A DNA stretch of 64,000 nt from Lentisphaeria bacterium. Its GTDB lineage: Bacteria; Verrucomicrobiota; Lentisphaeria; JABSQK01; JAWLHB01. The DNA is taken from positions 62,001 through 126,000 of the forward strand of contig JAWLHB010000004.1 of the NCBI GenBank assembly GCA_041690595.1. The letters run 5' to 3'. The position numbers and the translations under genes are program-made. Below are positions 39,616 through 57,287 of this stretch, piece by piece. The notes under the pieces are model-generated. The model worked only from the letters and a program-made list of their open reading frames with translations, did no database searches and was not told the origin of the DNA. Each line of letters starts with the position of its first letter. Position 1 is the stretch's first letter.

Positions 39616-40425
39616 TCATGCGGATTTGCGGCGCTTGGGCTTGTCTGCCTTGCTCTTCTCCAGGCTCTCCCTGAGGGCCTGCATGAGATTGATGACCGGC
39701 GGACCTTCTTCCTGATGCACCGTGGCGACGGCGGAGACGTCTTCACCTTCGGCCTTCGCTTCGATCAGCTCCTCGACTTTCTTGCGGTATGTGTCTTCGT
39801 ACTGCTCGGGGGCAAATGCTTCCGTGAGGGATTCGATGAGCTGTTTGGCCATCTTGATCTCCTTGTCCGTGAGCTTCACATCCCCCGGCAGATCCCCAAG
39901 ATCCTCGGCCTCCTGAACTTCGTCGGCATAGTTCATGATGTGCAGAACCATGACGCCATCCTTCGGGCGCAGGGTGACGAGGTGCTGGCGCTCTCGCATG
40001 ACAAACTGGCCGATGGCGACGCGGCCGCTCTCTCGCATGGCGCGCTCGAGCAGGGCATACGCCTTGGCCCCGCCCTTGCCGGGAACGATGTAATAGCAAC
40101 GATCCCAGTAGATGGGATCCACCTCCTGAATGTCGATGAAGGCCTCCAGATCGATGGTATCCCCTTTCTCCGGCTTGATCTGATCGAGTTCGTCCTGCTG
40201 GACGATGACGTACTGATCGGGGGCGATCTCGACGCCGCGGGCCGTCTCCCCGAAATCGTACTCCTTGCCGTTCTCCGGGCAATACAGCTTGCGGCGGAGC
40301 CGACAGTTACCCTCCGGGCTGAGCATGTGAAAGTTCACGCGTTGTTGCCGTACGGCCGTCATCAGCTTGACGGGAAAGGTGACCAGGCCAAAGCTGATGC
40401 TACCTGTCCAGATGGAATGTGCCAT
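39616..40425 (-). CDS. ku: NHEJ DNA end-binding protein Ku
   Basis: SIWTGSISFGLV..PVKL, VINLMQALRESL. Confidence 0.95.
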   Translation of the reverse strand: MAHSIWTGSISFGLVTFPVKLMTAVRQQRVNFHMLSPEGNCRLRRKLYCPENGKEYDFGETARGVEIAPDQYVIVQQDELDQIKPEKGDTIDLEAFIDIQEVDPIYWDRCYYIVPGKGGAKAYALLERAMRESGRVAIGQFVMRERQHLVTLRPKDGVMVLHIMNYADEVQEAEDLGDLPGDVKLTDKEIKMAKQLIESLTEAFAPEQYEDTYRKKVEELIEAKAEGEDVSAVATVHQEEGPPVINLMQALRESLEKSKADKPKRRKSA

Positions 40426-40449
40426 GATAGGATCTCCTGATGGTGAGAG

Positions 40450-43023
40450 TCAAGCGATGCCCGTCGCCTGTTTCATCTTCCTGGTGATGGATTGGCGCAG
40501 GGAAAAGAAGCCTTCCCACGGGTCTGTCTTGATTGCACTGAGGCGCCGGCGGACATCGGGAACGCTGAAACTGTTGGGTAGCAGGTCGGCGTCAAGCTCG
40601 TCCCAGGTGACTGGAATCGCGACCGGCGCACCTTCCCGAGCCCGGGTCGAGTAGGAGCTGACGGCAGTGGCGCTGTGGCTGTTGCGCTGAAAATCGATGT
40701 AGATCCGCCCCTCTCGCTGCTTCTTGCTCATGTTGGCGGTGAAGCGGTCGCGATGATCGCGGGCCATCTGCGTGGCGATCGCTCCGGTGAAGGCCTTCGC
40801 CTCGTCCCAGCTCTGGCGGCGAGTAAGCGGGATGACCACGTGGATGCCCTTGCCACCCGAAAGGCGGGCGAAGCTGACAAGCCCCATCCCCGCCAGGCGA
40901 TCCCGCAGCTCGCGGGCGGCGGAGACGATCTCCTCCCACTCGATCTGCTCTCCCGGATCGAAATCGAAGATGAGGCGGTCGGGTTTGTCGGGTTGATCGG
41001 CGGTGCATCCCCACGGATGCAGTTCAAGAGCGCCGAACTGGATCAGGGTGATCAGACCGGCCAAGTCGTCGATGACGATGTACTCCTTGGGATCGCTCTT
41101 GCCGGCGATGTGGACGCCGCGAACCGGCGGCGGAAGCGTCTCCCCCACATGCCGCTGATAGAAGCAGTTTTTGCCACGACCAGATGGGCAGCGAACGAGG
41201 CTGACCGGTCGACCGACGAGGTGGGGCAGGATCCAGTCTGAGATCTCCGCGTAGTATTCGGCCAGATCCTGCTTGGTGAGTCCCATTTCAGGAAAGAGCA
41301 CACGATCCGGGCTGGAGAGGTTGACGCCGGCGATCTGGACGCCCTTCTTCTTGCGCTGGTTCATGGTAACCTGCTTTGGCGGCGTAGTACCGGCCGATGC
41401 CTTGTCGTCCGCCGGCTCGACGGTTTTGTCGGTGAGAGCGGGTTTTTCGCGGATGATGCTTTCGGGAGGTTTGTCCGCGCGCAGCCCTTTGAAGGAGGGA
41501 TGACGGAGCCGTCCATCGCCAGTCCATTCGGTGAATTCGACTTCGCAGACGAGCTTCGGCGTCACCCAGCGACCGGAGCGCTGCACCGCTTTCGGCAGAT
41601 CGATGAAGGGCGGCGACTTGCGCTCGATACCGTGCAGCTTGTTCGCCAGCTCTTCGAGAAGACGATCACTGAAGCCGGTACCGACGCCGCCACAGAAGCG
41701 CAGCTCCTCACCATCGTAGACGCCGACCAGCAGCGCGCCGAAGCCAAGGCGGGATCCTTCCGGCTCCGTGAAGCCCCCGATCACGAACTCCTGCCGGTGC
41801 ACGCACTTGACCTTGAGCCAGTTGCGGCTGCGTCGCCCGATGTAGGGTGCATCCGCCTTCTTGCAGATGATCCCTTCCAGATGATGCTCGCACGCTTGCT
41901 CATGAAACTCCGCTCCCTGGCCGACGATATGATCGAGATAACGGATATGCCCCGTTGCCTGGACGCCGAGAATGCTCCGCAGAAGCTGCTTGCGCTGGAG
42001 CTGCGGGCTCTTCCGGAGATCGTGGCCGGCGTAGTACAGGATGTCGAAGACGTAATAGACGACGGAGGAGGTGCCGCCGTCGCGGAGGAGATTCTGCAGC
42101 GCCTGGAAGTCGGTGGTGCCGTCCGGGCGCAAGACCACGGCCTCGCCATCAAAGATGGCATCTTCCAGGTCCAGCCCCTCCAGAGCGCGCCGCGGGTCGG
42201 TGAAGCGGGCTGTCCAGTCCTTCGCGTTGCGGGTCAGCAGGCGCACCTTGCCGTCTCGGATGTGAGCGACGAGGCGATAGCCGTCGAGCTTCATCTCGTG
42301 AATCCACTGGTCGCCGTCGGGGACGAGATCCACCAGGGTGGCAAGCTGCGGGCTGACCTCCTTCGGCATGGCGGCGCGGCGGGCGTTGGGCAGCGCGGAA
42401 GGTTCGGGTGCAGCCATCGGTGGCTCGTCCCCCCGCGCCTCGCCTTCCTGCCAGACGGAATCGGCATGACGGGTGATCTGCTTCATGCCGCGCCCGGTGA
42501 GAACGCTGCGGTCGTTAGCGTCGAGAAAGCCCTCCGCATCGGGATCCGCGATATCGTCGTGTTCCTTGATGAGGAGCCAGTTCTTGTCGTCTTCGCTCTG
42601 TTTCATCTGCACCAGAGCCCAGTTGCCCCGCATCTTTTCGCCCTCCAGGCGAAAGGAGAGTTTGCCCTTTCGCAAGCCCTTGTGCGGGTCGTCGTTCGGA
42701 GCCCAGGTGCCGCGATCCCAGAGCATGACGGTGCCGCCGCCGTACTCTCCGGCGGGGATGATGCCCTCGAAATCGCCATAGTCCAGCGGATGATCTTCCA
42801 CGGCGACGGCGAGGCGCTTTTCGCCGGGGTCCAGGCTGGGCCCCTTCGGCACCGCCCAGCTCTTCAAGACGCCATCCAGTTCCAGGCGAAAGTCGTAATG
42901 CAGATTTCGCGCCGCATGCTTCTGAACGACAAAGAGATTGCCGCCGGAGTCTGGGCGTTCGTTGCCGGCAGGCTCCGGGGTCTTGGCAAAATCGCGTTTT
43001 CGATGATAGTCTTCCAGTGGCAT
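40450..43023 (-). CDS. ligD: NHEJ DNA ligase D (phosphoesterase-ligase-polymerase)
   Basis: KRDFAKTPEP, HYDFRLE, EMKLDGYR, RLRHPSFKGLR, SGGKGIHV. Confidence 0.96.
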   Translation of the reverse strand: MPLEDYHRKRDFAKTPEPAGNERPDSGGNLFVVQKHAARNLHYDFRLELDGVLKSWAVPKGPSLDPGEKRLAVAVEDHPLDYGDFEGIIPAGEYGGGTVMLWDRGTWAPNDDPHKGLRKGKLSFRLEGEKMRGNWALVQMKQSEDDKNWLLIKEHDDIADPDAEGFLDANDRSVLTGRGMKQITRHADSVWQEGEARGDEPPMAAPEPSALPNARRAAMPKEVSPQLATLVDLVPDGDQWIHEMKLDGYRLVAHIRDGKVRLLTRNAKDWTARFTDPRRALEGLDLEDAIFDGEAVVLRPDGTTDFQALQNLLRDGGTSSVVYYVFDILYYAGHDLRKSPQLQRKQLLRSILGVQATGHIRYLDHIVGQGAEFHEQACEHHLEGIICKKADAPYIGRRSRNWLKVKCVHRQEFVIGGFTEPEGSRLGFGALLVGVYDGEELRFCGGVGTGFSDRLLEELANKLHGIERKSPPFIDLPKAVQRSGRWVTPKLVCEVEFTEWTGDGRLRHPSFKGLRADKPPESIIREKPALTDKTVEPADDKASAGTTPPKQVTMNQRKKKGVQIAGVNLSSPDRVLFPEMGLTKQDLAEYYAEISDWILPHLVGRPVSLVRCPSGRGKNCFYQRHVGETLPPPVRGVHIAGKSDPKEYIVIDDLAGLITLIQFGALELHPWGCTADQPDKPDRLIFDFDPGEQIEWEEIVSAARELRDRLAGMGLVSFARLSGGKGIHVVIPLTRRQSWDEAKAFTGAIATQMARDHRDRFTANMSKKQREGRIYIDFQRNSHSATAVSSYSTRAREGAPVAIPVTWDELDADLLPNSFSVPDVRRRLSAIKTDPWEGFFSLRQSITRKMKQATGIA

Positions 43024-43885: not shown

Positions 43886-45235
43886 TCACGCCTGCGCCTC
43901 GATCTCATGGTCGATGCGGCTCTGTTGCTCGTGCGACAGGGCGGGTAGTATACGGCGAACGACGGCTTTCTCGACCGCCTGGCGGAAGGCGTGGCTCTGC
44001 ACGAGATCGCGGGCGGTTACCATATTGGCCAGATCTTCCGCGAGATTCTCCACGTTGAACTGTCGGGGACGTTGCAGCCGCACCTGCTCAAAGAGCGATT
44101 CCTGCTTCTGCCACGCGAGCCAGAGGCGCAGGCAGGCGCTCTCGCTCTCGTCCAGAGCCGCTGCCTTGGTGGCGAGGCGGGCATTGAGCTGGCGAAACAT
44201 GATCTGGAGGGCACGTCCGCTCGGCACGACGGTGCTGTCGAAGAGGGCTTCGCCCCGCGTATTGGTCATGCGATAGATCTCGCCCACCTTGAGGGCGATG
44301 AAACGCAGGATCGCGTCGATGGGCTCAAGCACCTCGGCGCGCAGCCAGTCGGGCTTGCTGTGAGGAAGCGTCGGGTCGAACTGCATGACGGCGCGCGGGC
44401 CGACCGCCGGATTGACGCTTTCCTCTCCGAGCGACGGGCGGGGCATCATCAGCATGGGAAAGGCGGCCAGATCGATGACCTCGTCCGCCTGCGAGATGTT
44501 GCGCATGATGGAGACATCGATGCGGGCGATATCCTGAATATCGGAGGTGCCGATAAAGGGGTCGGCGCTCCGGGCATTGAAATGCCAGACAAAGGGGACA
44601 ATCCCCAGAGGGTTGGCGCCGAGGGCGACACAGCGATAGCGTCCTTGCTCATCGCGCTCCCACAGTTCCCACCGCTCCCGCGTCCAGCACCGGATCGTGC
44701 CATCGGCCTCCCGCAGCTTCACATACTCGAGGCGAGGCCGATGATGCTGGTCGCGGCCGTGACGCCAGTCGAGTATGTTGGTCGGCAGGTAGATCGCCAG
44801 GTAGGGATGAATGCCGGCGCGCAGCTCATCCTCGCGGCTTCGCGCTTCGCCTGGCGCCTTGGTGACGAGGATGCCGACATGGCCCAGGACGCTCGCATAT
44901 TGCTGCGCTTCGTGCCAGAAGAGGTCGTAGTCGGTGCCGAGCAGGTCGATGTCCTTCATGAAGGCATGGAAGAGCGCATCGTCCGCGAGGCGGCCGAGTT
45001 CGCGGGTTGGCGGCTTCTCGAAGAGGTAATGGAGAAAGATCTCGACGATGGAGCGGGAATAGTTGAAGGAGATCGCCTGGCGCTGACGCTGGGCATGATT
45101 CTCGGGTGACTCGCGGATATGCCGCGGCAGGGCGCCGGCGTCGATGAGCGCCTGCGTCCCCTGCCAGGCGGCGAGCAGGAATTTCCAGTCGGAGAGGTGC
45201 CGACGGTAGAGGGGATGGGTGGTTTCGATGTCCAT
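43886..45235 (-). CDS. Phage portal protein (SPP1 gp6/DUF4055-like)
   Basis: 449 aa; THPLY...W, ES.E....R...A..FNY, ILDW, NPLGIVPFV, SGRALQ. Confidence 0.8.
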   Translation of the reverse strand: MDIETTHPLYRRHLSDWKFLLAAWQGTQALIDAGALPRHIRESPENHAQRQRQAISFNYSRSIVEIFLHYLFEKPPTRELGRLADDALFHAFMKDIDLLGTDYDLFWHEAQQYASVLGHVGILVTKAPGEARSREDELRAGIHPYLAIYLPTNILDWRHGRDQHHRPRLEYVKLREADGTIRCWTRERWELWERDEQGRYRCVALGANPLGIVPFVWHFNARSADPFIGTSDIQDIARIDVSIMRNISQADEVIDLAAFPMLMMPRPSLGEESVNPAVGPRAVMQFDPTLPHSKPDWLRAEVLEPIDAILRFIALKVGEIYRMTNTRGEALFDSTVVPSGRALQIMFRQLNARLATKAAALDESESACLRLWLAWQKQESLFEQVRLQRPRQFNVENLAEDLANMVTARDLVQSHAFRQAVEKAVVRRILPALSHEQQSRIDHEIEAQA

Positions 45236-45255
45236 GAGATGAGATTCCTTTGGGT

Positions 45256-46104
45256 TCAGGCGCGGAGCCAGCGCATGGCGCCGCCATGTTTTTCCGGTGC
45301 CCAGCGCAGGGGCTGGCCGTTGGTATCGGCGATGGGCGGCACACGAAGGAGGATCCGGGTGATCTCCCAGAAGTCGCGGCCGGTTGCATCGCGCACAGTC
45401 TCGATGCTCTGATCGATCCCCCGCCAGACGCCCGCGGCCGTGGCATCCGGGAGATGGAAGCGGGTGGGAATGCAGGCGGGGCTGCCATCGGTGACTCCGC
45501 CAAAATCGAGATAGCGGCTGAGGAAGTTGGCGCGGGCGTGAAAGACGATGGTTGACACTTCGCAGCGGGCACTCTGTTGATGCATCTGCCACGCTGGGGT
45601 GTGGGTAAAGGGAGAGGCCGCCGGAGGCTGCTGCGCCGCGGCCGGCCAGTCGAGGAGCCATGTCGGGTCCGCGGGATCGCGCTGAATGGGGGCATGCCCC
45701 GGAACGCCGCTGCCGAGATTGACATGCTCGGCGCTCCACGGCGAGCCATCCGTCGGGCGCGGCGGGAGAGGTTGCACCCCCAGTACCGCCGACGAGAAGA
45801 GAAAATCGCGGCGGCTGAAACTGATGTGGTAGAGGGAGCGAAGGTTCTCGCGGTCGAAGGAGATGCCGACGGCGATACTGGGTCGGGCGGTGACGCTGAC
45901 GTAATCGACGTGCGGCGCAAAGGCGGTCACGGCGACCTTGTCGACGATCCATCCCGGTACCAGCAGGTCGGCGGCATCGCCGCGATGGGGGCGGAACTCG
46001 CGGTCGGCGGCGGCCATCCGGAAGCGCGCCTGGGCATAGGTGCCCTGAGCATCTTCGTGAAGGTCGACATTATCGATAAGCTGCAGGCAGGTCCAGTCGG
46101 CCAT
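45256..46104 (-). CDS. Hypothetical protein, possibly tail/baseplate component
   Basis: 282 aa beta-rich ORF in the cassette, GGAG RBS. Confidence 0.6.
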   Translation of the reverse strand: MADWTCLQLIDNVDLHEDAQGTYAQARFRMAAADREFRPHRGDAADLLVPGWIVDKVAVTAFAPHVDYVSVTARPSIAVGISFDRENLRSLYHISFSRRDFLFSSAVLGVQPLPPRPTDGSPWSAEHVNLGSGVPGHAPIQRDPADPTWLLDWPAAAQQPPAASPFTHTPAWQMHQQSARCEVSTIVFHARANFLSRYLDFGGVTDGSPACIPTRFHLPDATAAGVWRGIDQSIETVRDATGRDFWEITRILLRVPPIADTNGQPLRWAPEKHGGAMRWLRA

Positions 46105-46127
46105 GGGGCGAGGCTCCAGTGGAAGGT

Positions 46128-46418
46128 TTATTCATCGAGGAGGAAATGGGCGAGGGGCCGAAAGAGTTCGGCAAGCTCGCGCAGGTGCTGATTGGCGAGC
46201 CTGGTTTCGGCCTTGAGCTGGCGCAGCTCGTCGAGGATGGCATCCGATGGGGTGGCGGCCCCTTCGGTGATGGTTGGATCATGGGTTGCTCCTTCTTGTT
46301 TCGGTTTGCCGCCGGCGGCCTGCGCCGTGCCGCTGAAGGAGGCTTCCAGCTCGGCAAGCTGTTGACGGGCCTGATCGGCCGCCAGTTGAATGTCGATGGT
46401 AAGTGTTTGTTCACTCAT
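46128..46418 (-). CDS. 96-aa protein resembling a collapsed tape-measure protein
   Basis: N-terminal LTIDIQLAADQARQQL and C-terminal LDELRQL..ANQHLREL helices joined by a short linker. Confidence 0.45.
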   Translation of the reverse strand: MSEQTLTIDIQLAADQARQQLAELEASFSGTAQAAGGKPKQEGATHDPTITEGAATPSDAILDELRQLKAETRLANQHLRELAELFRPLAHFLLDE

Positions 46419-46761
46419 GGCGTTTGTTCAGGTTGGCGGTGGTGCGAAGCTGGGTACTGATCTCGTTGGGAATGCAGGGGCAGCGATGGATGGCGGTGCA
46501 GGCGTCGTGAAGGGCATCGGCGATGCGCTGAAAGGCCTGGCTGTTGGTGTCGAGGGCGGTGGCGGCGTGGTTGAGCGCGGAGCGCAGGTCGCCGCGATAA
46601 TCGCCCTCCAGGCTCTCGATGCGGGCAATCAGCGACTGCTCGCGACGGTAGCCGCGAGTGATGGCCTCCTTGCTCAGCCAGAAGATGTGCCAGAGCAGGA
46701 CGGCACAAAGCGCGATCCACGGGCCGAAGCTGTCGGCAAGGCGGGTGAGGTGGTCAAGCAT
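46411..46761 (-). CDS. Holin-like single-TM coiled-coil protein
   Basis: FGPWIALCAVLLWHIFW TM then REQSLIARIESLE; overlaps both neighbours. Confidence 0.55.
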   Translation of the reverse strand: MLDHLTRLADSFGPWIALCAVLLWHIFWLSKEAITRGYRREQSLIARIESLEGDYRGDLRSALNHAATALDTNSQAFQRIADALHDACTAIHRCPCIPNEISTQLRTTANLNKRHE

Positions 46762-47521
46762 GGGCGGCTCCCTCCATGGTGTCGATGTAGGCGTCGATGC
46801 CGTGGTAGCGTTTGAAGAGACTCCGGCGCTTCATCCAGGTGAGGGCTCCAAGGGTTCGCCAGGCGAGCCGCAGTTGGCGGAGCCGGCCAACATGCCGATA
46901 ACCGAGTGTGCAGGGGGCCACCCACGGGACGGGATCCGGCCCGTTGACGATACGCATGGATGGGATCACCGCGTCAAAGGCGCGCCGATAGCGCCGCTGG
47001 GCGACGCGTGGAGCCCCGAAGGTCACCATCCGGACAGGCACCAGGCCGTCGAAGTGCAGGTAGAGATCGTAAGCGGCGGGAACGGCCTCCCCACCCCCTT
47101 TGCTGTGACCGGTGACGGTGATGGAAGCCGGCTGCCCCATATCCTCGAGCAGACGCTGACGCAGCGCCTGATAGCCGTGCAGGAAGCCGGCGTGGAGCGG
47201 CATGCCATAGTGATGGCATGGCCGACAGTCCAGGTTGGCCAGCCAGTCGATGGGGCTGTCGCTGCCACGGAAGACCAGGACGAGGTGCTCCCCGGGGCGA
47301 CGGTAGAGCTGCGCCTGCGCGTCGAGATGAACGCGGCGCTGGCAGGTAGGGCAGGCATAGTCGCCATAGTAGTCATACGCATCGACAAGGCCGGGCGCCT
47401 GGGCACGGATGATCCACGGATTGCTGTACGAGAGGCGGGCGAGCCGCGCGAGATCCAGGTTGGACAGCTCGGGCAGCGCGAGCAGCTGCGCAAGTGCCGG
47501 GGTTTGAGCGGATTGATGCAT
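46754..47521 (-). CDS. Class 3 lipase (alpha/beta hydrolase)
   Basis: VFRGSD, LHAGF, TGHSKGG, TFGAPRV, DPVP, YRHVG, HGIDAY: complete Ser-Asp-His set. Confidence 0.9.
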   Translation of the reverse strand: MHQSAQTPALAQLLALPELSNLDLARLARLSYSNPWIIRAQAPGLVDAYDYYGDYACPTCQRRVHLDAQAQLYRRPGEHLVLVFRGSDSPIDWLANLDCRPCHHYGMPLHAGFLHGYQALRQRLLEDMGQPASITVTGHSKGGGEAVPAAYDLYLHFDGLVPVRMVTFGAPRVAQRRYRRAFDAVIPSMRIVNGPDPVPWVAPCTLGYRHVGRLRQLRLAWRTLGALTWMKRRSLFKRYHGIDAYIDTMEGAAHA

Positions 47522-47557
47522 GGAAGGTCCCTCTGTGGTTGTGACGAATGGTGTGTA

Positions 47558-47905
47558 TCAGGAAACGATGGGGTCGCCGGCGAAGTCGAGAATGGTGGTG
47601 CGGGTGCGGTCACTCCATGAGGCGGAGACCAACCCGGTGAAGGTGGCAATGACGGTGCTGCCCCGCCGGAGGGTGATGGTGTCGGTCGTGGCCGGCAGTG
47701 TATCCAGGTGGGTGTGATCGCCACGAAGCTCGAGGCGCGCGCGGATATCCACGGCCTGCCGGTCGTGATGAATGCGGCCGTCGGCGGTGGTGGTGGCGAT
47801 GTCTCGCCCGCGCTCCTGGTAGGTGCCGCTGCCCGGCAGGACCAGTTCCGCGGGGAGATGGTGGTCGCCAATGAGGGCGTTGTCGAAGGGAAGCAGTGAT
47901 GGCAT
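47558..47905 (-). CDS. Small beta-rich hypothetical virion protein
   Basis: 115 aa from MPSLLPFD, GGAGG RBS. Confidence 0.6.
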   Translation of the reverse strand: MPSLLPFDNALIGDHHLPAELVLPGSGTYQERGRDIATTTADGRIHHDRQAVDIRARLELRGDHTHLDTLPATTDTITLRRGSTVIATFTGLVSASWSDRTRTTILDFAGDPIVS

Positions 47906-47925
47906 GAGACGATTCCTCCCGTAGT

Positions 47926-48261
47926 TCAGGGCCGGGAGCCCTTCCAGGTGATGGTGGCAATCTGAAGAGCATCGCCTTGAATGCTCAGGTCGACGAGGGC
48001 GCCGACGGCGGTTGGCGGATCGCCGGAGACGGTGACATCGCCGGGACCGACGGGAGAGCGCAGCATCCGCAGGCTGGCGAAGCTTTGGTCGCCCTCGTCG
48101 CGCACCAGGCACTGAAGGGAACCCTGGCGCAGAAGGCCGGCCCGGACGTTGGGTACCTGTCGTCCCCCACGGTCGTCGTGGCCACCTCCATGTCGAAGGG
48201 TTCCGGGAATCGGGTTTATCATGAGTGTTTGCTCACCATCGCGTGCAAAGATGACTGTCAT
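47926..48261 (-). CDS. Small beta-rich hypothetical virion protein (possibly tail-tube-like)
   Basis: 111 aa, GGAG RBS, directly after the terminator-like gene. Confidence 0.55.
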   Translation of the reverse strand: MTVIFARDGEQTLMINPIPGTLRHGGGHDDRGGRQVPNVRAGLLRQGSLQCLVRDEGDQSFASLRMLRSPVGPGDVTVSGDPPTAVGALVDLSIQGDALQIATITWKGSRP

Positions 48262-48288
48262 GGCGAAAGGTCTCCGTTTGATCGATGT

Positions 48289-48699
48289 TCAGGGAAGGAG
48301 GACGTCGAAGCTGACGAGGTAGAGGGTGTTGGTGGCGCCGAGATCAAGGGGCATGTCGCCCTGATACTGCCAGATGGCGTCGCGGTAGGAGAAGTCATCG
48401 AGTCTGGCGATGGATTCATCCAGGAGGGCGCGCGCATTGGCGGCCCCAGTCTCGGCCTGGGCATGGGAGGTGGCGATGAGCAGTTGCAGGCTGAGGCGGC
48501 GTCGCGGGTGCTGCTGACGGCGGCCGCCCTGGTAGATGACGATGACGGCGGGCAGTTGCGTCGCGTTCAGGCGCTGATAGAGGGCCTGGAGGGAGCTGCC
48601 GGAGAAGGTGAGCACCTGCCAATCCGGGTACGCGCGCAGCCGCTCGGCGGTCTGTTGCAGGATGGTCTCGGTCGATTCGAGGTAGTCGGTCAGCGGCAT
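48289..48699 (-). CDS. Tail terminator-like protein
   Basis: 136 aa from MPLTDY; LPAVIVIYQG, ALLDESIARLDDF, YLVSF; position after neck gene. Confidence 0.6.
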   Translation of the reverse strand: MPLTDYLESTETILQQTAERLRAYPDWQVLTFSGSSLQALYQRLNATQLPAVIVIYQGGRRQQHPRRRLSLQLLIATSHAQAETGAANARALLDESIARLDDFSYRDAIWQYQGDMPLDLGATNTLYLVSFDVLLP

Positions 48700-48719
48700 G
48701 GTGGGCTCCGGGCGAATGG

Positions 48720-49139
48720 CTAGGAGGTAAGAAGCTCGCGAAGATCGTCGAGGGTGGCGGGTGAATCGTCCGGGGCGAAGCCGAAGAAGGGACGAGTGGG
48801 CTGGTTGGCGGCGGCTTTGAAGGCGGAGTGGGAGTCGAGGAAGGTGAGGGAGACCCCGTCGCCGGTGAGGCGCGGGGCCATGGCGGCAAGCATGGCGCCG
48901 GTATGGAAGAGGTTGACGGCGGGAGAGGCGCCGGAGCGTTCCCGCTGCCGGCGCCAGGCCGGGGTATAGGGCCGAAACCGCTCTCCCGCGAGGCTGATGC
49001 CGGCGGCAGTGCGCCGCAGGATGCGCAGGCGCTGACGATCGGCAAGCTCGAGGAGGAGATCGGGGGCGGCAAGGCGATCCAGCAGCTGCTGGAGAGACTG
49101 ACCGGCGGCCTGACCGTCGATATGGAGGGGCGGCAGCAT
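48720..49139 (-). CDS. Virion morphogenesis / tail-completion (neck) protein
   Basis: G..F.PY...W, VNLFHTGAMLAAM, RPFFGF motifs. Confidence 0.72.
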   Translation of the reverse strand: MLPPLHIDGQAAGQSLQQLLDRLAAPDLLLELADRQRLRILRRTAAGISLAGERFRPYTPAWRRQRERSGASPAVNLFHTGAMLAAMAPRLTGDGVSLTFLDSHSAFKAAANQPTRPFFGFAPDDSPATLDDLRELLTS

Positions 49140-49141
49140 GA

Positions 49142-49588
49142 TCAGAGACGCTCCAGTATACGCGTTTCGAGCGGGCGGGCGGTCTCGGCCGGCGCGATGT
49201 TGGCGGAGCCGTCCCAGTCATAATCGAGACCGGCGGCAAGGACATCGGCTAGTTCAGCGGCGTAGCGAGCCTCCCAAGTGGCGGCGAGATGGTGAAAGGG
49301 CTCGTCGGGGTGTCCTTTGGCGAGATAGAGATAGACCAGGTGGAGCGCCTTGCAGGCAGCCAGCATAGTGAGCTGTTCGTCGGCATGCAGGAGGTTGGCT
49401 CTGGAGAAGGGGAGGTGATCGGGGTCGAGCCCGCGCTGGCGGGCGGCGGCACGGTACCAGCCAATGGTAAGCGCCCGGTCGACAATCCGGGTGGCTTCGG
49501 CGAGCTGATGGGGCCACGCGGTGGGGCCGAGCTGAAGGATCTCCGGGCGCAGCTTTTCGAGGTCCGAATCGGTGCAGTAGGTGCTCAT
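49142..49588 (-). CDS. Head-tail adaptor protein
   Basis: YCTDSDL N-terminus, EATRIVDRAL, Y..EL...LDYD; follows capsid gene. Confidence 0.7.
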   Translation of the reverse strand: MSTYCTDSDLEKLRPEILQLGPTAWPHQLAEATRIVDRALTIGWYRAAARQRGLDPDHLPFSRANLLHADEQLTMLAACKALHLVYLYLAKGHPDEPFHHLAATWEARYAAELADVLAAGLDYDWDGSANIAPAETARPLETRILERL

Positions 49589-49614
49589 GACGATGGGTGC
49601 CTGCGTGAGGTGGT

Positions 49615-49662
49615 GGGGAAAATGCCGCCGGGAGCGCGGCGCGGCCGTGGGCTCCCGGCGGC
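49615..49662 (-). terminator. Intrinsic terminator/attenuator after the major capsid gene
   Basis: GCCGCCGGGAGC/GCTCCCGGCGGC 12-bp stem (49624-49662) followed by ATTTT on the minus strand. Confidence 0.7.
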
Positions 49663-49681
49663 GGTGGGTTCAGGGGCGGAG

Positions 49682-50659
49682 TCAGGAGGTGTGGATCTCG
49701 ATCCCGCCGGCGTTCTTGACGTTGCTGGTCACGAGGGTCCAGTTGGCCGTGTCGCCCAGCTCGGCGTCACTGGGGTTGGGAGCGGCGGTGGAGAACTGGA
49801 AGCCCTTGACGCGCGCATTGAAGGCGTACTCTCCCTGGATGCGGAAGAGGAGCTGAGCCTTGCCGGTGATCATCTCCGCGGCGATGGTCTCTTCTTCGGA
49901 TTCGGTGACGACGAGTCCGTCGCGGGCGAAGCCGAGGGTATGGTAGGAGACTGGGTCGACACCATTGTCATGGCGCAGCGCATCGGCATCGGTGACGATG
50001 ACGGGGAGACCGAGCGTCTCGACGGTTCCGGCGCGGACGGTGAGGTTGGCAATGCCGGTGATGTTGTCCGCGAGCGACTGCTGCATGAGGTCGAAGTAGA
50101 CCTTGGAATGCATCACCCAGCAGACGATCCGCTGGGCGGCATCGCCGAGCCTGGCGAGGCCGCCGAGGAGGTGGCCGTGGGTCATGGTCGGCGTCTGCAG
50201 GGCGGTGGCGTCAAAGCGGAGCCGCGGATCCGTCTGAAACGCGGCGCGGGCGGCGAGGAGACCCGAATCCAGGAAGTTGAGGGTCTTTGCCTGTGCGACC
50301 ATGCGGCCGACGATGAGGGACATCTGCGCGGCGTCCATGCCGATCTTCTTGAAGGAATTGAGGGTCTGAGTGACGGGGCCGATGCGGCGGTCGAGCTTGA
50401 CGCCCACTTCCTCCCCCTGGGTGAGGGGCAGGTCATCGGCGTCGAGGAGGCTGCTCAGGTCGCGTCGGGAGACGAGGCCGACGATGGTATCGAAGAAGGC
50501 TTCCTTCTCGTACTGGCCGAGGAGTTCTTGCTGCACGAAGCGGATGCCGAAGTTGCTGGCCTCGTTGAAGGCGCGGATGGTACGGGCGAGCGCCTCGTAT
50601 TTGCCGAGCTGGTACTGGGCGTCCTGAAGGACGAAGTCGGATTGTTTGCCGATAGGCAT
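49682..50659 (-). CDS. Major capsid protein (HK97 fold expected)
   Basis: 325 aa; AFNEASNFGI, CWVMHSKVYFDL, LGLPVIVTD, IQGEYAFNARVKGF, NPSDAELGDTANW; AAGGAG RBS. Confidence 0.88.
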   Translation of the reverse strand: MPIGKQSDFVLQDAQYQLGKYEALARTIRAFNEASNFGIRFVQQELLGQYEKEAFFDTIVGLVSRRDLSSLLDADDLPLTQGEEVGVKLDRRIGPVTQTLNSFKKIGMDAAQMSLIVGRMVAQAKTLNFLDSGLLAARAAFQTDPRLRFDATALQTPTMTHGHLLGGLARLGDAAQRIVCWVMHSKVYFDLMQQSLADNITGIANLTVRAGTVETLGLPVIVTDADALRHDNGVDPVSYHTLGFARDGLVVTESEEETIAAEMITGKAQLLFRIQGEYAFNARVKGFQFSTAAPNPSDAELGDTANWTLVTSNVKNAGGIEIHTS

Positions 50660-50742
50660 GATGGTTGCTCCTTGTTGATGAGCGATTTGTTACAGCCGCA
50701 CCATGCGGCCATGACTCATGAGTGATTAGTTAAAGTTATGAC

Positions 50743-51507
50743 TCAGCCGCGGGTATCGGCATCGATGAGCTGCCGCGCGGCCTGCATGCCGTGCTGGTCG
50801 ATGAAGCGCGCCTGTTCCTCGACATCCATCTGGCTCCATGGGCGGGAGTCCTCGGGATGGAGAGAGGCAGCGCCGCCGCCGGCGCCGCCGCCGCCGGGAT
50901 GGCCTGCCTTGAGCATGCGATCCCGATGAGGGTGGCGCTGGATGATCTGCTGGAGCGCCTCTTCGGGGTTGGCGTAGTCGCCGGGACGGGATGGAGACAT
51001 GATCGGTTGGCCGTCGACGCGAGCGATCGGCACGGGGCGGCCGTTGCGCTCTTCCACGTGGAAGTTCTGGCCGAAGTAGACGTAGGCCATCTCCGGCAAG
51101 AGAAGGGTCTGTTCACGCAGAAAGTCCGAGGTATCGAAGGCGGACTTGATGAGCAGATCGTGAATCTGGCTGTCGCGCTGGGCGATGGTCTCGTCGCGCT
51201 GTTGCAGGCGGCTGGTGTACTGCTCTTCGATGTGGCGGCGCACCTGTTCGGCCTCGCCGGCATCGATGAGGGACTTGTTGGCGAGGTCCTCGAGCTTGCG
51301 CAGCGCGTCATGGGCGGCGGCGGGTTCGATCTCCCCATAAGCGCTGAGGGCGGCGTTGAGTTCGCCAACGCGGGCAGAGAGCTGACTGATGGTGGCTTGC
51401 ATGGCGACGGGGTCGACGGCCAACTCGGAGCCGTCATCCTGAAGGTAGAGCGGAAGATCGTCGGCAGTGAGGACCGGGTGGCCAAGGTCATTACGTTTGA
51501 GTTTCAC
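50743..51507 (-). CDS. Capsid scaffolding protein (DUF6651-like)
   Basis: GTG start 6 nt after AAGGAG; MKLK..., LPLYLQDDGSE, LIDAGEAEQV, SRPGDYANPEEAL, Gly-rich tail. Confidence 0.8.
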   Translation of the reverse strand: MKLKRNDLGHPVLTADDLPLYLQDDGSELAVDPVAMQATISQLSARVGELNAALSAYGEIEPAAAHDALRKLEDLANKSLIDAGEAEQVRRHIEEQYTSRLQQRDETIAQRDSQIHDLLIKSAFDTSDFLREQTLLLPEMAYVYFGQNFHVEERNGRPVPIARVDGQPIMSPSRPGDYANPEEALQQIIQRHPHRDRMLKAGHPGGGGAGGGAASLHPEDSRPWSQMDVEEQARFIDQHGMQAARQLIDADTRG

Positions 51508-51539
51508 AGACATCTCCTTTTTCTTGTTAAGGTGCCAAT

Positions 51540-51567
51540 ACCATAGCACCAAAACTCGAAAAGTCAA
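51540..51567 (-). promoter_or_regulatory. Putative sigma70 promoter of the virion cassette
   Basis: TTGACT-N16-TATGGT with extended -10 TGn; palindrome ATAAC-N6-GTTAT just upstream (51575-51590). Confidence 0.5.
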
Positions 51568-51724
51568 GCCGGATATAACCAAAAAGTTATCACAGGTAAG
51601 GAAATTATGTCGGCACGGTGTGGGAGGGGTCTGGGGAGACGGGGAGTTGAAATCGCGGAGGCGACCGCTACTCTAATAGAGGAGTTCAGGCACGGCGTCC
51701 GCGGCCTGGCGCAAGGATGCAAGG

Positions 51725-54631
51725 GTGGAGCAGCAGTACGTGGAAAAACCTCTGGACAAGCAACTCACGATCCTGGTGATCGACGATGACGATCTGGCGT
51801 TGGAGAGCCTGTCGCTGATCCTTCGGGAGAACGGCTATCGGGTGCTAGTGGCGGCATCGGGAAGCGAAGGTCTGGAGCTTTACCGGGAGTGCACGCCGGA
51901 CATCGTGCTGGTCGATCTGCAGATGCCGGGCGCGGGGGGCATGTGGGTGGTTGACCAGATTCATCGGGAGTCTCCGCAAACGCCGTTGCTGCTGGTGAGC
52001 GGCACGCGCGACATCCAGGATGCCATCGAGGGGCAACGCTACGGTGCATGGGACATGGTGCTCAAGCCGATCGAGCCGCTCTCCCTGACGCATGCGCTGG
52101 ATCGAGCGATCGAACGACAGGGGCGCCTGCTGCACGGCGCGGAACAGCAGCGCCAGTTGGAGCAGGAGGTGGATGATCGCTCCAACGAGGCCCGGGAAAA
52201 CAATGGCGAGCTGCGGGCGCTCAATGCGCGTCTCCAGCAGCTCCTCCACCTCATCGGCACCTTCTCGCCGAACACGGATTATCATCAACTGACGGCCCAG
52301 TTGCTGACTCACTTTGCGCTGGACATGACGGCGTCGGGGGGGCGCTTCTACGAAGTGGAGGAAGGGGGGCTGCGCCTGGTTCACGAGATCAAGTCGGCGG
52401 CGCCGGATTTTCTGCCCTTTCCCCTGCCGCGTGGCTCGCTTCTGGACCGGGTGATGACGGTGAAGAAGCCGCTGCTCCTCTCGACGCGCCGGGAGGCGGA
52501 TGAGTCGCTGGATACCTGGGGGGAATCGCAGGATGGTACGGTGATGGCTTTCCCGTTTGCCGGTGAACGTGGCGATGTCCTGGCGATCATTGTGCTGTTG
52601 CGGCTGGGCGAGGTTCCCTTTCGGGGGCAGGATCTGAAGCTGGGCGGCATCCTGGCCTCCTTCTGCAGTGGCTCCCTGCGGGCGGCGAGGACCACCGAGG
52701 AGCTGCGACGCAGCGAGCAGCGTTACCGGGACCTGGTACATCATGCGCGAAGCATACTGCTGCGCCTCGATCCGCAGGGACGCATCCGCTTTTTCAACGA
52801 ATTCGGACAACGCTTTTTTGGCTTTCAGGAGCAGCAGGTGGTGGGCAAAGGGTTGATCGGTACGCTGGTGCCGCCCACTCCCGAGAACGAGGCGCAGTTG
52901 CAGGAGCTGCTTCGCGAGATCCAGCAGCAGCCGGAGAAGCATGCGGGGACGGAGCAGCTGTGCCGCTGCCGGAACGGTCGTCGCGTCTGGATAGCCTGGA
53001 CGCACCGCGCCCTTCTGGATGAGAATAAGAAGCTGGCCGGTATCCTCTGCGTGGGAACCGACATTACTGACCGCAAGCGCATCGAGGAAGCCCTGGCGGA
53101 GGAGCGCGATCGGCTGCAGTCGTTCATGGATACGAGCCCGATCGCCATTATGGTCGTCAATCGGACCGGCAAGATGATCCAGGCCAACACCCAGGCCAAA
53201 CTGCTGCTCGATAATCTGCAGGATCCGGTGGAGACGCTCAACTGGCAGACGCCGGGTGCAAGCTGGACGGATTGGGACGGGTCGCCGCTGAAGGCAGACC
53301 AGATGCCGCTGCGCCGCATCATGCAGATCCGCAAGCCGATCAGCGACATCCGGCTGGCTCTGGCACGTCCGCAGGGGCGCCGCACTCTCCTTTCCGCCAA
53401 CTGCGCCCCCATCTTCGATGACAACAACCAGATCATCGGCATGATCGCGGCGCTGCAGGATGTGTCGCAGCGTCTGGCCTTGGAGGACCGGCTGCGTCAG
53501 GCTCAGAAGATGGAGACGGTCGGGCAGCTTGCCGGCGGCGTCGCCCACGATTTCAACAATCTTCTTCTCCCGATCATCGGTTTTTCCGAGATGCTGCTGA
53601 ATCAGATCGCGGAGGATCATCCGCTGCGGGAGCAGATCTCGCTGATCTACAGAGCGGGCGAGCGTGCCAAGCATCTGACGCGGCAGCTCCTGGCCTTCAG
53701 CCGCAAGCAGGTCTTCGAGATCGAGTGGCTCGACCTCAATGCGCTTATCGGCGGCTTCCAGAAGATGCTCGGTCGGACCATCCGGGAGAACATCGACATG
53801 CAGTTCGTGCCGTCGAACCGACTCGGCCAATGCCGTGGCGATGCGTCGCAGATCGAGCAGGTGCTGATGAACCTGGTGATCAATGCGCAGCATGCCATGC
53901 CGGAGGGTGGCAAGCTCATTATCGAGACCGCCGATGTCGACCTGGACGAGGCGTATGCGGATTCGCATCCGGAGGTGGTGCCCGGTGGCTACGTGATGCT
54001 GGCCGTCTCCGACACGGGCTGCGGCATGGACAAGGAGACGCAGCGGCACATCTTCGAGCCCTTCTTCACCACTAAGAAGGAGGGAGAGGGAACCGGCCTG
54101 GGGCTGGCCACCGTCTACGGTATCGTGCGCCAGCACAATGGCAGCATCTGGGTCTACAGCGAAGTGGAGAAGGGGACGACCTTCAAGATCTACCTGCCAC
54201 GCCAGAAGGGAGAAGAGGCGCGCGAGATGGCCCGTCGCGCCCGCAAACCGCCACGGGGGACGGAGACGATCCTCCTCGCCGAGGACGACGATCTGGTCCG
54301 CACCGCCGCCGCCAGCATTTTGAGCCAGCACGGCTATACGGTCATCGACAGCGATGATCCGGTGCGCGCGCTGCAGCTCTCCGAGGAGCATGACGGCCCC
54401 ATTCAGTTGCTCCTCAGCGACGTGATCATGCCCATGTGGAACGGCCGCGACCTGTACCAGCGTGTGCAGAAGCTGAGACCGGAGCTGCGGGTGGTCTTCA
54501 TGTCAGGCTACACGGAGCGCGCCATCTCGCATTATGGCGTACTGGACGAAGGGGTGCACTTCATCCAGAAGCCGTTTACCAGCCTTTCGCTGCTCACCGC
54601 GGTGCGCGACGCGCTGGACGAGGGCCTATAG
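51725..54631 (+). CDS. Hybrid sensor histidine kinase (REC-GAF-like-PAS-PAS-HisKA-HATPase-REC)
   Basis: DLQMP, AHDFNN, NLVINA, FEPFFTTK..GTGLGL, DVIMP, FIQKPF. Confidence 0.95.
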   Translation: MEQQYVEKPLDKQLTILVIDDDDLALESLSLILRENGYRVLVAASGSEGLELYRECTPDIVLVDLQMPGAGGMWVVDQIHRESPQTPLLLVSGTRDIQDAIEGQRYGAWDMVLKPIEPLSLTHALDRAIERQGRLLHGAEQQRQLEQEVDDRSNEARENNGELRALNARLQQLLHLIGTFSPNTDYHQLTAQLLTHFALDMTASGGRFYEVEEGGLRLVHEIKSAAPDFLPFPLPRGSLLDRVMTVKKPLLLSTRREADESLDTWGESQDGTVMAFPFAGERGDVLAIIVLLRLGEVPFRGQDLKLGGILASFCSGSLRAARTTEELRRSEQRYRDLVHHARSILLRLDPQGRIRFFNEFGQRFFGFQEQQVVGKGLIGTLVPPTPENEAQLQELLREIQQQPEKHAGTEQLCRCRNGRRVWIAWTHRALLDENKKLAGILCVGTDITDRKRIEEALAEERDRLQSFMDTSPIAIMVVNRTGKMIQANTQAKLLLDNLQDPVETLNWQTPGASWTDWDGSPLKADQMPLRRIMQIRKPISDIRLALARPQGRRTLLSANCAPIFDDNNQIIGMIAALQDVSQRLALEDRLRQAQKMETVGQLAGGVAHDFNNLLLPIIGFSEMLLNQIAEDHPLREQISLIYRAGERAKHLTRQLLAFSRKQVFEIEWLDLNALIGGFQKMLGRTIRENIDMQFVPSNRLGQCRGDASQIEQVLMNLVINAQHAMPEGGKLIIETADVDLDEAYADSHPEVVPGGYVMLAVSDTGCGMDKETQRHIFEPFFTTKKEGEGTGLGLATVYGIVRQHNGSIWVYSEVEKGTTFKIYLPRQKGEEAREMARRARKPPRGTETILLAEDDDLVRTAAASILSQHGYTVIDSDDPVRALQLSEEHDGPIQLLLSDVIMPMWNGRDLYQRVQKLRPELRVVFMSGYTERAISHYGVLDEGVHFIQKPFTSLSLLTAVRDALDEGL

Positions 54632-55339
54632 AGCCGGCACCCGGCCTTGCGGACGGTAATAGCGGGCATAGTCGTTGTAGAGCAGATAGAGAGGGGGCTC
54701 GTCTTCCTCGATGTCGGGGAAGCGGCCAACCGGTTCGAAGAAGTTATTGTCGGTCCGGTCATCGTTGACGCGGCTGACTTCGCCGACGAGGACGGTGCCG
54801 GTGCCGGGCTCTCCCCAGAAGCGGTGGTAGTTGCGCTGCGGCAGGCAGACGGAATCGCCGGGGCGGAGGGTGATGGTGCCGCCGGCGGGAACCGTGACGT
54901 GCACGCCATCCTGGCTGAGGGTGACGGGAGAGTCGTCGAGCTGATTGTCGGCGGTGGCATTCCAGGTGCGGATGACGAGGTTGCCGCCGCCGCGGTTGAT
55001 GATGTCTTCCATCTTCTGGTGATGGAAGTGGGTCGGCGTGACCTGATTTTCCTGAACGATGAGGATCTTCTCGCCGTACCACTTGCCGAGGGGATTGGCG
55101 AGGTCGGCTGGGGTGCCATTGCGGATGGTGAAGAGGAAGAGGCCGACGGCGTCGAAATCGCCGCTGCCGAAGTCGGTGATATCCCAGCCGAGTTGCTGGT
55201 CGATGATGTCGGAGCACTCTGGTCCTCTGGTGGCCCATTCGTCCGGGCTCCAGGTGGCAAAGGGTGGGAGGAGGAAGTTCATGCGCTGAAGGAAGGCGAG
55301 GCTGTCGCGCATAATCCTGTTGATGTCGGAACGTTTCAT
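54626..55339 (-). CDS. D-lyxose/D-mannose-family sugar isomerase (cupin)
   Basis: MKRSDIN, LGWDITDFG, PTHFHHQKMEDIINRGGG, GEVS.VNDD.TDN. Confidence 0.9.
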   Translation of the reverse strand: MKRSDINRIMRDSLAFLQRMNFLLPPFATWSPDEWATRGPECSDIIDQQLGWDITDFGSGDFDAVGLFLFTIRNGTPADLANPLGKWYGEKILIVQENQVTPTHFHHQKMEDIINRGGGNLVIRTWNATADNQLDDSPVTLSQDGVHVTVPAGGTITLRPGDSVCLPQRNYHRFWGEPGTGTVLVGEVSRVNDDRTDNNFFEPVGRFPDIEEDEPPLYLLYNDYARYYRPQGRVPAL

Positions 55340-55364
55340 GGGAGGCTCCCTTTATCAGTCATGA

Positions 55365-57275
55365 TCATTCTTCGAGTTCCTCGGCGAGCGAGGCGTATTC
55401 TTCCCAGAGCTGCTCGAGCTGGCTGGTGACGGCTTGGAACTTGGCGTTGAGTTTGATGAGTTCATCCAGATCCTGCTGTTCTCCAGCCTTGCCGATGGCG
55501 TGCTCGATCATCCGTTTCTCGTCCTCGAGTTCGTGCAGCTGCGTCTCCACCTGCTCGTAGCGTTTCTGGGCGCGCTTGCGCTCGTTTTCGCGTCGGCGCT
55601 TGGCCTCGTAGGCACCGCGTCCGTCAAGGGCTTCGGGAGCCGCTGCGCGCGCGGTGGCGGGGGCCTCTTCGTCGGGAATGGGGAGGCGGCCGGCGGCATA
55701 CTCTTCCCAGGTGGCATCGACCAGGGTGGCCTTGCCATGCTCGATGACGATCAGCTTGCGGGCGACGGCCTGTATGAGGTAGCGGTCATGGCTGACCATG
55801 AGAATCGTCCCCTCGTAGTCCTGCAGCGCCTTCTGGAGGGCTTCCATGGTGGGAATGTCGAGGTGGTTGGTGGGCTCGTCAAGGAGGAGCAGATTTGGAT
55901 TGCGATAGGCGAGGCGGACGATGTTGAGGCGGGCGCGCTGGCCGCCGGAGAGGTCGGCGACGCGCTTGAAGGCGTCGTCGCCGCTGAAGAGGAGCGCGCC
56001 AAGGATTTCCCGCGCCTCGGCTTCGGAGCGAATGTCCTGGACCTGCCGGATGGCATCGACCAGCGTCAACTCGGGATCGAGGTCCTCATGGTGCTGGCGG
56101 AGAAAGGCGGGCTCCACGTTGGCGCCGTAGCGGAAGGTCCCGCCGAGGGGGGGCAGATCCCCGGCGATGGTGCGCAGGAGGGTGGTCTTGCCGGTGCCGT
56201 TGGGGCCGACAATGGCGACGCGGTCGCCGCGCTCGATGCGCAGGTTGGGCAGGTGGACGAGGGGGGTATCGTAGCCGGCGCGCAGATCGTTGACATCGAG
56301 CACCATGTCGCCGGTGCGGCGTCCAGCGGTGAAGCGCAGGCGCACGTTGCGGGCATATTCGGGCTTGTCGACGGCTTCGCGTTCGAGGTAGCGTTCGAGC
56401 TTGGTGCGTCGTCCCTGAGCTTCCTTGCTGCGCTGGCCGGCGATGTGGCGGCGGATGAAGTCCTGCTCCTTTTCGATGAGGAGCTGCTGGGCTTCCCATT
56501 CCTTGAGGCGGCGGTCGTAGCGTTCCTGGCGCTGCTTGCGATAGGCGGTGTAATTGCCCTTGTAGGTTTCGACGCGGGCGAAGCCGACTTCCCAGATGCG
56601 GTTGCAGAGCTTGTCGAGAAAGAAGCGGTCATGGGAGACGATCATGAGGTCGGCTGGATAGCTCTGGAGGAACTGCTCCAGCCAGATGGTCGCTTCGAGA
56701 TCGAGGCTGTTGGTCGGTTCGTCGAGGAGGAGCAGATCGGGCTTTTCGAGGAGGAGTCGGGCGAGGAGAGCGCGGGTGCGCCAGCCGCCGCTCAGTTCCT
56801 CCAGCGGACGCTGCTGCTGGGCCTGGCTGAAGCCGAGTCCGGTGAGGATGGCGTCGATCTGGTGCTGATAGTCATAGGCGCCCTGGTGTTCGAACTCGGC
56901 ATGCAGGCGGCTGTAGCGGGCGATGATCTCGGGGGGACAATTGGGTTCTGCCATCTGGTGGGCGAGGTCGGCGAGCTGTGTTTCGAGGGAGCGCACCGAG
57001 GCAAAGACGTCGAGCATGGCCTGTCGGAGGCTGGTGCCGAGCATCTGGGGGACGTGCTGGGGCAGGTAGCCGAGGCGAACGGACTTGGCGCGATCGATGG
57101 TGCCGGTGGTCGGTTCGTCGAGACCGACGAGCATGCGCATGATCGTCGTCTTGCCGGTGCCGTTGGCGCCGGTCAGACCAATGCGCTCACCTTCGTTGAC
57201 GACGAGGGTGACATTGCGCAGGACATCCTGCGTCGGGTAGATCTTGGTGACATTCTGAGCGCTGACCAGAGGCAT
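55365..57275 (-). CDS. ABC-F family ATPase
   Basis: Two ABC cassettes (GANGTGKT/LSGG/LLDEPTN twice), no TM, C-terminal coiled coil. Confidence 0.95.
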   Translation of the reverse strand: MPLVSAQNVTKIYPTQDVLRNVTLVVNEGERIGLTGANGTGKTTIMRMLVGLDEPTTGTIDRAKSVRLGYLPQHVPQMLGTSLRQAMLDVFASVRSLETQLADLAHQMAEPNCPPEIIARYSRLHAEFEHQGAYDYQHQIDAILTGLGFSQAQQQRPLEELSGGWRTRALLARLLLEKPDLLLLDEPTNSLDLEATIWLEQFLQSYPADLMIVSHDRFFLDKLCNRIWEVGFARVETYKGNYTAYRKQRQERYDRRLKEWEAQQLLIEKEQDFIRRHIAGQRSKEAQGRRTKLERYLEREAVDKPEYARNVRLRFTAGRRTGDMVLDVNDLRAGYDTPLVHLPNLRIERGDRVAIVGPNGTGKTTLLRTIAGDLPPLGGTFRYGANVEPAFLRQHHEDLDPELTLVDAIRQVQDIRSEAEAREILGALLFSGDDAFKRVADLSGGQRARLNIVRLAYRNPNLLLLDEPTNHLDIPTMEALQKALQDYEGTILMVSHDRYLIQAVARKLIVIEHGKATLVDATWEEYAAGRLPIPDEEAPATARAAAPEALDGRGAYEAKRRRENERKRAQKRYEQVETQLHELEDEKRMIEHAIGKAGEQQDLDELIKLNAKFQAVTSQLEQLWEEYASLAEELEE

Positions 57276-57287
57276 ACGAACCTGTGA

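Follow-up and report, generated by a model that had tools for sequence, protein, structure and literature searches.

A virion gene cassette of a Lentisphaeria bacterium as a probable part of a split, domesticated gene transfer agent

Gene transfer agents (GTAs), as viriforms, are defined by particles derived from tailed phages, endogenised genes, own genes that do not fit into one head, mostly random host DNA as cargo, and vertical inheritance (PMC9662315). Here, we describe a cassette of 12 virion genes from a Lentisphaeria bacterium, located on the minus strand at 43886-51513 of a 64,000-nucleotide stretch (the window, positions 62001-126000 of contig C4, JAWLHB010000004.1, in the 8.1-Mb, 99-contig assembly GCA_041690595.1, which is 97% complete and 3% contaminated). 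The assembly contains no 16S gene, and its gene content gives the impression of a PVC-type bacterium. We consider it probable, at about 0.7, that the cassette is part of a domesticated, split GTA, Bartonella-like in design and independent in origin. Both domestication and gene transfer are what we infer from the sequence.

The Bartonella agent (BaGTA) keeps its structural, packaging and phage-derived replication genes in separate modules whose control is coordinated, and it has an in-place origin that amplifies neighbouring host genes (PMC9662315; bioRxiv 10.1101/2024.11.20.624540). The system described here resembles it in both respects, having an origin that would amplify its surroundings. 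The BaGTA genes (bgt and ror) lie within ~79 kb and are linked by an antiterminator, whereas the modules found here occupy five contigs and share a palindrome; the proposed likeness is one of design. Dispersed cassettes of terS, the gene for the small terminase subunit (TerS), are present here and are not described for BaGTA in the part of the source available to us (PMC9662315).

The Rhodobacter capsulatus agent (RcGTA) combines a compact head-tail cluster with accessory genes at other loci and a TerS that has no helix-turn-helix (HTH) at its N-terminus; within the available part of the same source, no pac-like sites are known for it (PMC6854486). The present system shares the compact cluster, the scattered accessory genes and the HTH-less TerS, encoded on contig C2. 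From what is known of RcGTA, it differs in that TerS and the large terminase subunit (TerL) are encoded outside the structural cluster, in the terminal position of the portal gene, and in its scaffold, Gp13-like capsid, CI-like repressor and replication module.

Lateral transduction proceeds by in-place headful packaging from a chromosomal pac site, through up to seven or more headfuls and several hundred kb, while in Staphylococcus aureus pathogenicity islands (SaPIs) and other phage-inducible chromosomal islands (PICIs) the island TerS pairs with phage TerL and recognises island pac and pseudo-pac sites (PMC6687093). In contrast to both, the dispersed cassettes described here number ~44, and no integrase or replication gene was found in the copies read. 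They also have a promoter in common with structural genes of the host chromosome, instead of depending on an infecting phage.

To our knowledge, few lineages have yielded GTAs, and the searches depend on clusters in which capsid and terminase genes occur side by side. A split system on five contigs, found through a shared promoter palindrome, would, if true, represent a further independent domestication that converged on the Bartonella design, and the shared-palindrome approach would offer a way to find agents that cluster-based searches miss. In the main texts of the open literature, we found no description of a split agent with dispersed terS cassettes. The arrangement of the modules points to a GTA that is run by its host and has not been described before.

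Structural, packaging, replication and fibre modules

The cassette consists of co-oriented, tightly packed open reading frames (ORFs; gaps of -8 to 93 bp, 96% coding), all free of internal stops, in agreement with a sequence-only reading of the window that had singled them out as an intact virion cassette. The structural identity proposed there was confirmed by profile matches of the head scaffold protein (g1, 256 aa, 50743..51513; phrog_206, E 2e-20, and phrog_784), the major capsid protein (g2, Gp13-like, 325 aa, 49682..50659; PF20036, E 2e-72) and the portal protein (g12, 449 aa, last in the operon, 43886..45235; phrog_145, E 1e-56). The label "terminase-less" holds for the cassette itself and fails for the genome, which encodes a matching TerS/TerL pair on C2.

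A Terminase_6N search of the genome returned a single match above cut-off. It lies at C2:166944-170221, between sugar-metabolism genes, where a repressor gene diverges from an acidic 131-aa ORF, TerS and TerL; the orphan terminase that the earlier reading had proposed to look for was thereby located among host genes. The repressor is CI-like (phrog_4), with two HTH regions and an S24 peptidase. TerL (439 aa) is intact, PBSX-type and 40% identical to the TerL of L054 (IMGVR_UViG_3300035208_000662), a siphophage-like contig of 16.1 kb. TerS (109 aa) lacks the N-terminal HTH, aligning only with positions 52-129 of PF03592 and with residues 62-156 of the L054 TerS.

Directly downstream of the C2 repressor gene, there are about ten 9-bp tandem repeats (L085:13240-13360).

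Replication genes are found at C20:82996-84581, again between host genes. They encode a 300-aa initiator (phrog_2514), with internal iteron-like direct repeats, and a 228-aa DnaC-like loader (phrog_50). A second initiator copy at C3:12629, 83% identical to that on C20, breaks off after the repeats. Just upstream of it (L228, C3 10311-12400) are what we take to be an Abi-like gene and broken restriction-specificity and DUF1016-like fragments.

A fibre module at C54:11219-14091 comprises three orphan genes of 121, 288 and 534 aa, the last encoding a tail-fibre homologue. The three proteins gave no Pfam, NCBIfam, PDB or INPHARED match and one weak PHROG match. Homologues of the 534-aa protein occur in 15 of 300 other genomes sampled from the phylum, and one of these homologues, which aligns with it at residues 12-307 (E 4e-15), has a Phage Tail Collar domain (E 4e-23).

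Among the options listed in the sequence-only reading, a GTA-like system with packaging genes elsewhere is therefore the one supported, by an orphan TerS/TerL pair with its repressor, replication genes and a fibre module, all under the same promoter palindrome. With respect to the viriform definition, the particle proteins come from tailed-phage ancestors, and the genes are endogenised among host genes at several loci (C2, C3, C4, C20 and C54). As in the run-off replication of BaGTA, a phage-derived initiator and loader with a candidate origin, which is predicted to fire, are fixed in the chromosome at C20. The modules occupy separate contigs of 53-313 kb, and whether one head could package them all would depend on contig order and head size.

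For comparison, we used 14 other genomes of the same order and 350 others of the same class, with no member of the same family among them, and 80 viral loci picked by capsid similarity. TerL matches occur in 35 of the other class genomes, at ≤42% identity, and in 0 of the 14 order genomes.

Within the same class, two genomes of another family, f11 (G030 and G169; L257-L260), carry an orphan TerL whose host-gene neighbourhood is alike in the two, while further contigs hold orphan tail-fibre genes. A weak TerL match was obtained in 21 of 60 f11 genomes, and a match to the fibre N-terminus in 10 of 21; PF03592 was absent from the four f11 genomes searched. These genes possibly represent a second split system.

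Shared palindrome and dispersed terS cassettes

With ≤1 mismatch, TATAAC-N6-GTTATA has two sites in 8.1 Mb, one before the cassette and one before the C2 terminase operon, while other spacings give 0-2 sites. The operator-like site of the cassette (51574..51591) reads GATAAC-N6-GTTATA on the minus strand and is common to the module promoters on C2, C3, C20 and C54. Next to it, a minus-strand sigma70-type promoter (51540..51567; TTGACT, 16 nt, TATGGT) can be read from the sequence; in type and geometry it agrees with the one found at the dispersed terS cassettes. A second palindrome between the scaffold and capsid genes (50710..50727) is degenerate and weak, with a position weight matrix score of 13.7.

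As a control, 914 of 74,990 pairs of low-GC upstream regions (1.2%) were found to have such a palindrome in common. When each site was left out of the motif in turn, it was recovered at genome-wide ranks of 1, 5, 4 and 5. The next-best site in the genome, C54:14129, precedes the C54 trio, so that the fibre module was predicted by the motif scan. By eye, the palindrome at C2, C3, C20 and C54 sits between and over the -35 and -10 boxes, as would be expected for a repressor site, and the position of the C2 repressor gene suggests that its product binds there. Among the low-GC sites of the motif, 51 in all, repeat tracts follow 41, modules or a terS copy follow seven, and three are unrelated.

These repeat tracts belong to the dispersed cassettes. 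The promoter CTTGACTTTTGAGTTAT (≤2 mismatches) followed by TATRNT occurs in 43 copies and has the type and spacing of the promoter before the virion cassette. The pattern TT[GT]AC-N6-GTTAT has 47 sites, compared with 2-10 at other spacings, and lies upstream of 32 of 58 clusters of paired ACCGAG motifs; the pairs number 228, against four for a reversed control. Among 42 clusters with at least two pairs, the promoter is upstream on the same strand in 33 and on the other side in none. Promoter and repeats come together at 44 loci on 34 contigs, one per 184 kb, and the repeats are strand-polar and phased at 12 bp. The repeat is absent from all five modules.

PF03592 is found at 16 places in the genome: the C2 TerS, seven that span the profile and eight with the HTH part only. 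Six full-length TerS copies of one family are 71-96% identical with an omega of ~0.05, indicating that the proteins are under purifying selection, and the dispersed terS genes extend into the repeats. A database search with the dispersed TerS gave three matches, on contigs whose lengths equal those of contigs in this genome. The tracts hold hairpins that resemble repetitive extragenic palindromic (REP) elements, which may explain how the cassettes spread. The repeat pair was found on 0 viral contigs and in 0 of the 14 other order genomes; the exact promoter pattern occurs 14 times in the source genome, compared with none in the 350 other class genomes. Cassette orientation relative to the replichore was positive in 30 of 43 cases, a noisy proxy that we do not rely on. 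A complex prediction for the C2 TerS with a dispersed TerS scored 0.10, with the mark at 0.34, and is evidence neither way.

Two further loci carry TerS-like sequences. At C12:1908-2942 (+), a divergent 344-aa TerS with an HTH, 32-37% identical to the main dispersed family, comes with a promoter site of the form CTTTAC-N6-GTTATA and a separate tandem 12-bp repeat. The 24-kb contig C69 (L232) resembles an island; labelled by eye, it carries integrases, type I restriction genes in a cluster, a gene like those for primases and a short TerS-like fragment.

In the mechanism that we propose, loss of repression would switch on all modules together; the acidic 131-aa ORF could, speculatively, encode an antirepressor. 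The initiator would fire in place and amplify the neighbouring chromosome, as does the Bartonella run-off origin, and TerL would fill heads with host DNA by headful. A 96-aa tape-measure remnant would set a very short, non-contractile tail, and a holin and a lipase would aid release or lysis. Since the cassette cannot excise and has no repeat cluster, preferential packaging of its own genes is not expected.

The DNA to be packaged could be chosen in either of two ways. Packaging might start at random through the HTH-less TerS, or the HTH-bearing TerS copies might bind the phased repeats and recruit TerL at fixed starts, as SaPI TerS does with phage TerL. A tentative extension of the second option, which we regard as a little short of even odds, is that the agent has seeded the chromosome with the ~44 loci as packaging starts that are induced together, each made up of a promoter, a TerS gene or its HTH fragment, and phased ACCGAGG repeats, and that processive headful series from them tile the whole genome. 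This would be akin to lateral transduction from many sites, with two in-place replication origins adding further DNA; lateral-transduction series cover several hundred kb, enough to span the 184-kb cassette spacing. If the cassettes are packaging starts, they would constitute a second answer to the problem of DNA choice, with many fixed starts instead of lost specificity. If tiling is true, coverage of particle DNA would be non-random and saw-toothed, with a jump at each cassette and a one-directional fall-off.

Phage relatives and rival explanations

L054 carries orthologues of nine of the 12 cassette genes (g1-g7, g11 and portal) together with TerS and TerL, in one operon and at 28-45% identity. 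Its order is neck, TerS, TerL, portal, minor head, scaffold, capsid, g3, g5, g6, g7, chaperones, a 746-aa tape measure and g11. In contrast to the cassette, it thus has a full TerS, a minor head protein (MuF), tail chaperones and a long tape measure in a contiguous operon, and it has no palindrome. Relative to L054, the cassette has lost terminase, minor head and chaperone genes, moved the portal gene to its end, and gained lipase and holin-like genes; its tail would be short and non-contractile.

No near-identical complete prophage was found among the 80 viral loci, where the best capsid identity is 45%, in keeping with the earlier reading. Viral scans with the portal alone returned no locus, and those with TerL alone one distant locus. 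Close capsids (73-75% identity; clade support 100/99) are on short contigs that lack host labels. One of them, the 1.8-kb metagenomic contig L086 (73%), shows REP-like repeats and an AT-rich promoter stretch followed by scaffold and capsid, and neither a portal gene nor one for a minor head protein lies upstream of these; a perfect ATAAC-N6-GTTAT precedes its capsid start, while its promoter matches only one half-site. The dN/dS ratio, which had been suggested as a check, is well under 1 by maximum likelihood under a codon model (omega against L086 of 0.024 for capsid and 0.21 for scaffold, at ~2 substitutions per codon).

On viral contigs L184 and L185, scaffold and capsid genes are opposite in strand to terminase and portal genes, an unusual split late operon.

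Several results weigh against a domesticated agent. The findings rest on one assembly, and the capsid family is above cut-off in one of 351 class genomes, the source genome itself. The motif was first derived from the cassette and C2 sites, which is why the control pairs and leave-one-out tests were run; the C3 site was taken from a two-mismatch list and the C20 site from a family search, these two being duplicates, and the palindrome overlaps -10 or -35 boxes. TerL has nearer database relatives (55-61%) than L054, so that a common ancestor of all modules is unproven. L086 could be a phage contig, an ordinary phage lineage could equally show a low omega, and uncorrected Nei-Gojobori counting gives 0.47 for capsid and 0.91 for scaffold, values that we disregard, since third positions, at 63-80% C, are saturated. 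Carbon cost per residue is no lower than in the phage orthologues, with no shift to cheap amino acids, and codon adaptation fails to separate the cassette from an apparently complete, lambda-like prophage of ~48 kb on C5 (~49.6-98 kb; serine recombinase, GpA-type TerL, portal, protease-capsid fusion and tape measure). Searches for the endolysin families PF00959 and PF01510 gave no match, the functions given to g3, g5, g6 and g7 are suggested by position and orthologues, and the terS cassettes may be selfish elements that exploit the regulon.

Some of these points would also be expected if the modules were rearranged and decaying remnants of one or more prophages, the motif an inherited promoter sequence and the terS cassettes an unrelated selfish repeat. 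Such a history would account for the absence from the 350 other class genomes, the truncation of the C3 initiator beside island debris, the missing endolysin, and the eight of 15 other TerS matches that cover the HTH part only. However, no gene is broken in the cassette or in the C2, C20 and C54 modules, the portal gene was moved and the tape measure shortened in frame, and the same layout persists in L086 at ~2 substitutions per codon. Moreover, in L054 the scaffold gene is internal and the motif absent, so each module would have had to gain the motif. We consider decay unlikely.

Less likely still is a domesticated particle made for something other than gene transfer, such as an empty decoy, a lipase-carrying weapon or a device for DNA release in biofilms. 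The very short tape-measure remnant, the lipase inside the tail block and the lack of a MuF gene, present in L054, would suit such a particle, but a particle that packages no DNA has no need of an intact TerL, a portal, numerous copies of TerS or replication genes behind the same motif.

The least probable of the three is a helper-dependent or interfering element that uses the C5 prophage for lysis or diverts its assembly: although that prophage has its own TerL, portal, capsid and tape measure and the split system has no recognised endolysin, the latter is equipped with head, portal, terminase, tail-tip, fibre and replication genes that belong to families unrelated to those of C5, the motif is absent from the C5 prophage, and no integrase or primase adjoins the cassette.

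Known classes of mobile element were also considered. The modules are not joined in one stretch that includes an integrase, att sites and replication genes, as an inducible prophage would be; there is no island combining integrase with primase or replication genes, as in a PICI or capsid-forming PICI, and the flanks are host genes; and capsid, scaffold and portal are present, in contrast to a tailocin.

Genes and surroundings of the cassette

All cassette genes are on the minus strand. The scaffold is 33% identical to its L054 orthologue, and homologues of the portal gene directly follow TerL in L054, L179 and L181. After the capsid gene, g3 (148 aa, 49142..49588) encodes a probable head-tail adaptor, judged by its position; in L054, L090 and L181, its orthologues come immediately behind the capsid block. 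A tail-completion or neck protein is encoded by g4 (139 aa, 48720..49139), which matches PF05069 weakly and whose L054 orthologue matches phrog_26 (E 9e-11). The product of g5 (136 aa, 48289..48699) is a probable tail terminator, with orthologues in L054 and L090 and a weak phrog_209 match. At the tail-tube position are two small proteins, g6 (111 aa, 47926..48261; 37% to its L054 orthologue) and g7 (115 aa, 47558..47905; 36%). For g7, Atlas gave DUF6711 and Phage_min_tail at 0.79, which we treat as a lead only, and single-sequence fold prediction gave a pLDDT (predicted local distance difference test) of 36 and no usable fold.

The class 3 lipase g8 (46754..47521; PF01764, E 2e-20; phrog_21992) retains an intact GHSKGG motif and is a candidate envelope-breaching enzyme. 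It is followed by g9 (46411..46761), a holin-like protein of 116 aa with one N-terminal hydrophobic helix (hydropathy peak 1.65) and a weak PF10960 match (E 0.06).

The 96-aa protein g10 (46128..46418) occupies the tape-measure position, directly before g11. Its C-terminus resembles that of the L054 tape measure (shuffle p 0.0002), the N-terminal comparison gave p 0.4, and whole-protein BLAST gave E 0.088; g10 is probably a tape-measure remnant. The tail-tip protein g11 (282 aa, 45256..46104) has an orthologue following the tape measure in L054. Its model (pLDDT 85 from 14 sequences) predicts an N-terminal hub/Dit-like barrel, for which the closest VIA matches, with a middling Z of 5.7, were hub and Dit proteins of phage baseplates. 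Phage matches were also obtained in BFVD, and a Foldseek search of the PDB gave none.

The flanks are as the sequence-only reading had described them. The portal stop lies 5 bp from a convergent 241-aa host gene (ending at 43880), and the first cassette gene diverges from a hybrid histidine kinase at 51725 on the plus strand. The window holds no tRNA, and direct repeats, of which there are at least 60 families, include no att-like pair flanking the cassette among the 20 largest families. The downstream host gene is present in 15 of 15 order genomes, and the cassette proteins are unmatched within ~1.5 kb on each side of its locus in the 14 relatives.

Four sediment sequencing runs of one study contained small shares of the stretch, and no RNA run was listed as containing any of it. 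Contigs from these runs gave short, near-identical pieces at a depth of 2-5 within the cassette and its flanks, with no junction-bridging piece listed; neither was used as evidence. Plus-strand GC skew is strongly positive (up to 0.24) at 45000-64000 of the window, where minus-strand genes are C-rich at third positions. One gene away from the portal, at 39616-43023 (-), are Ku and LigD end-joining genes, which could serve the repair or integration of linear DNA ends or be chance neighbours.

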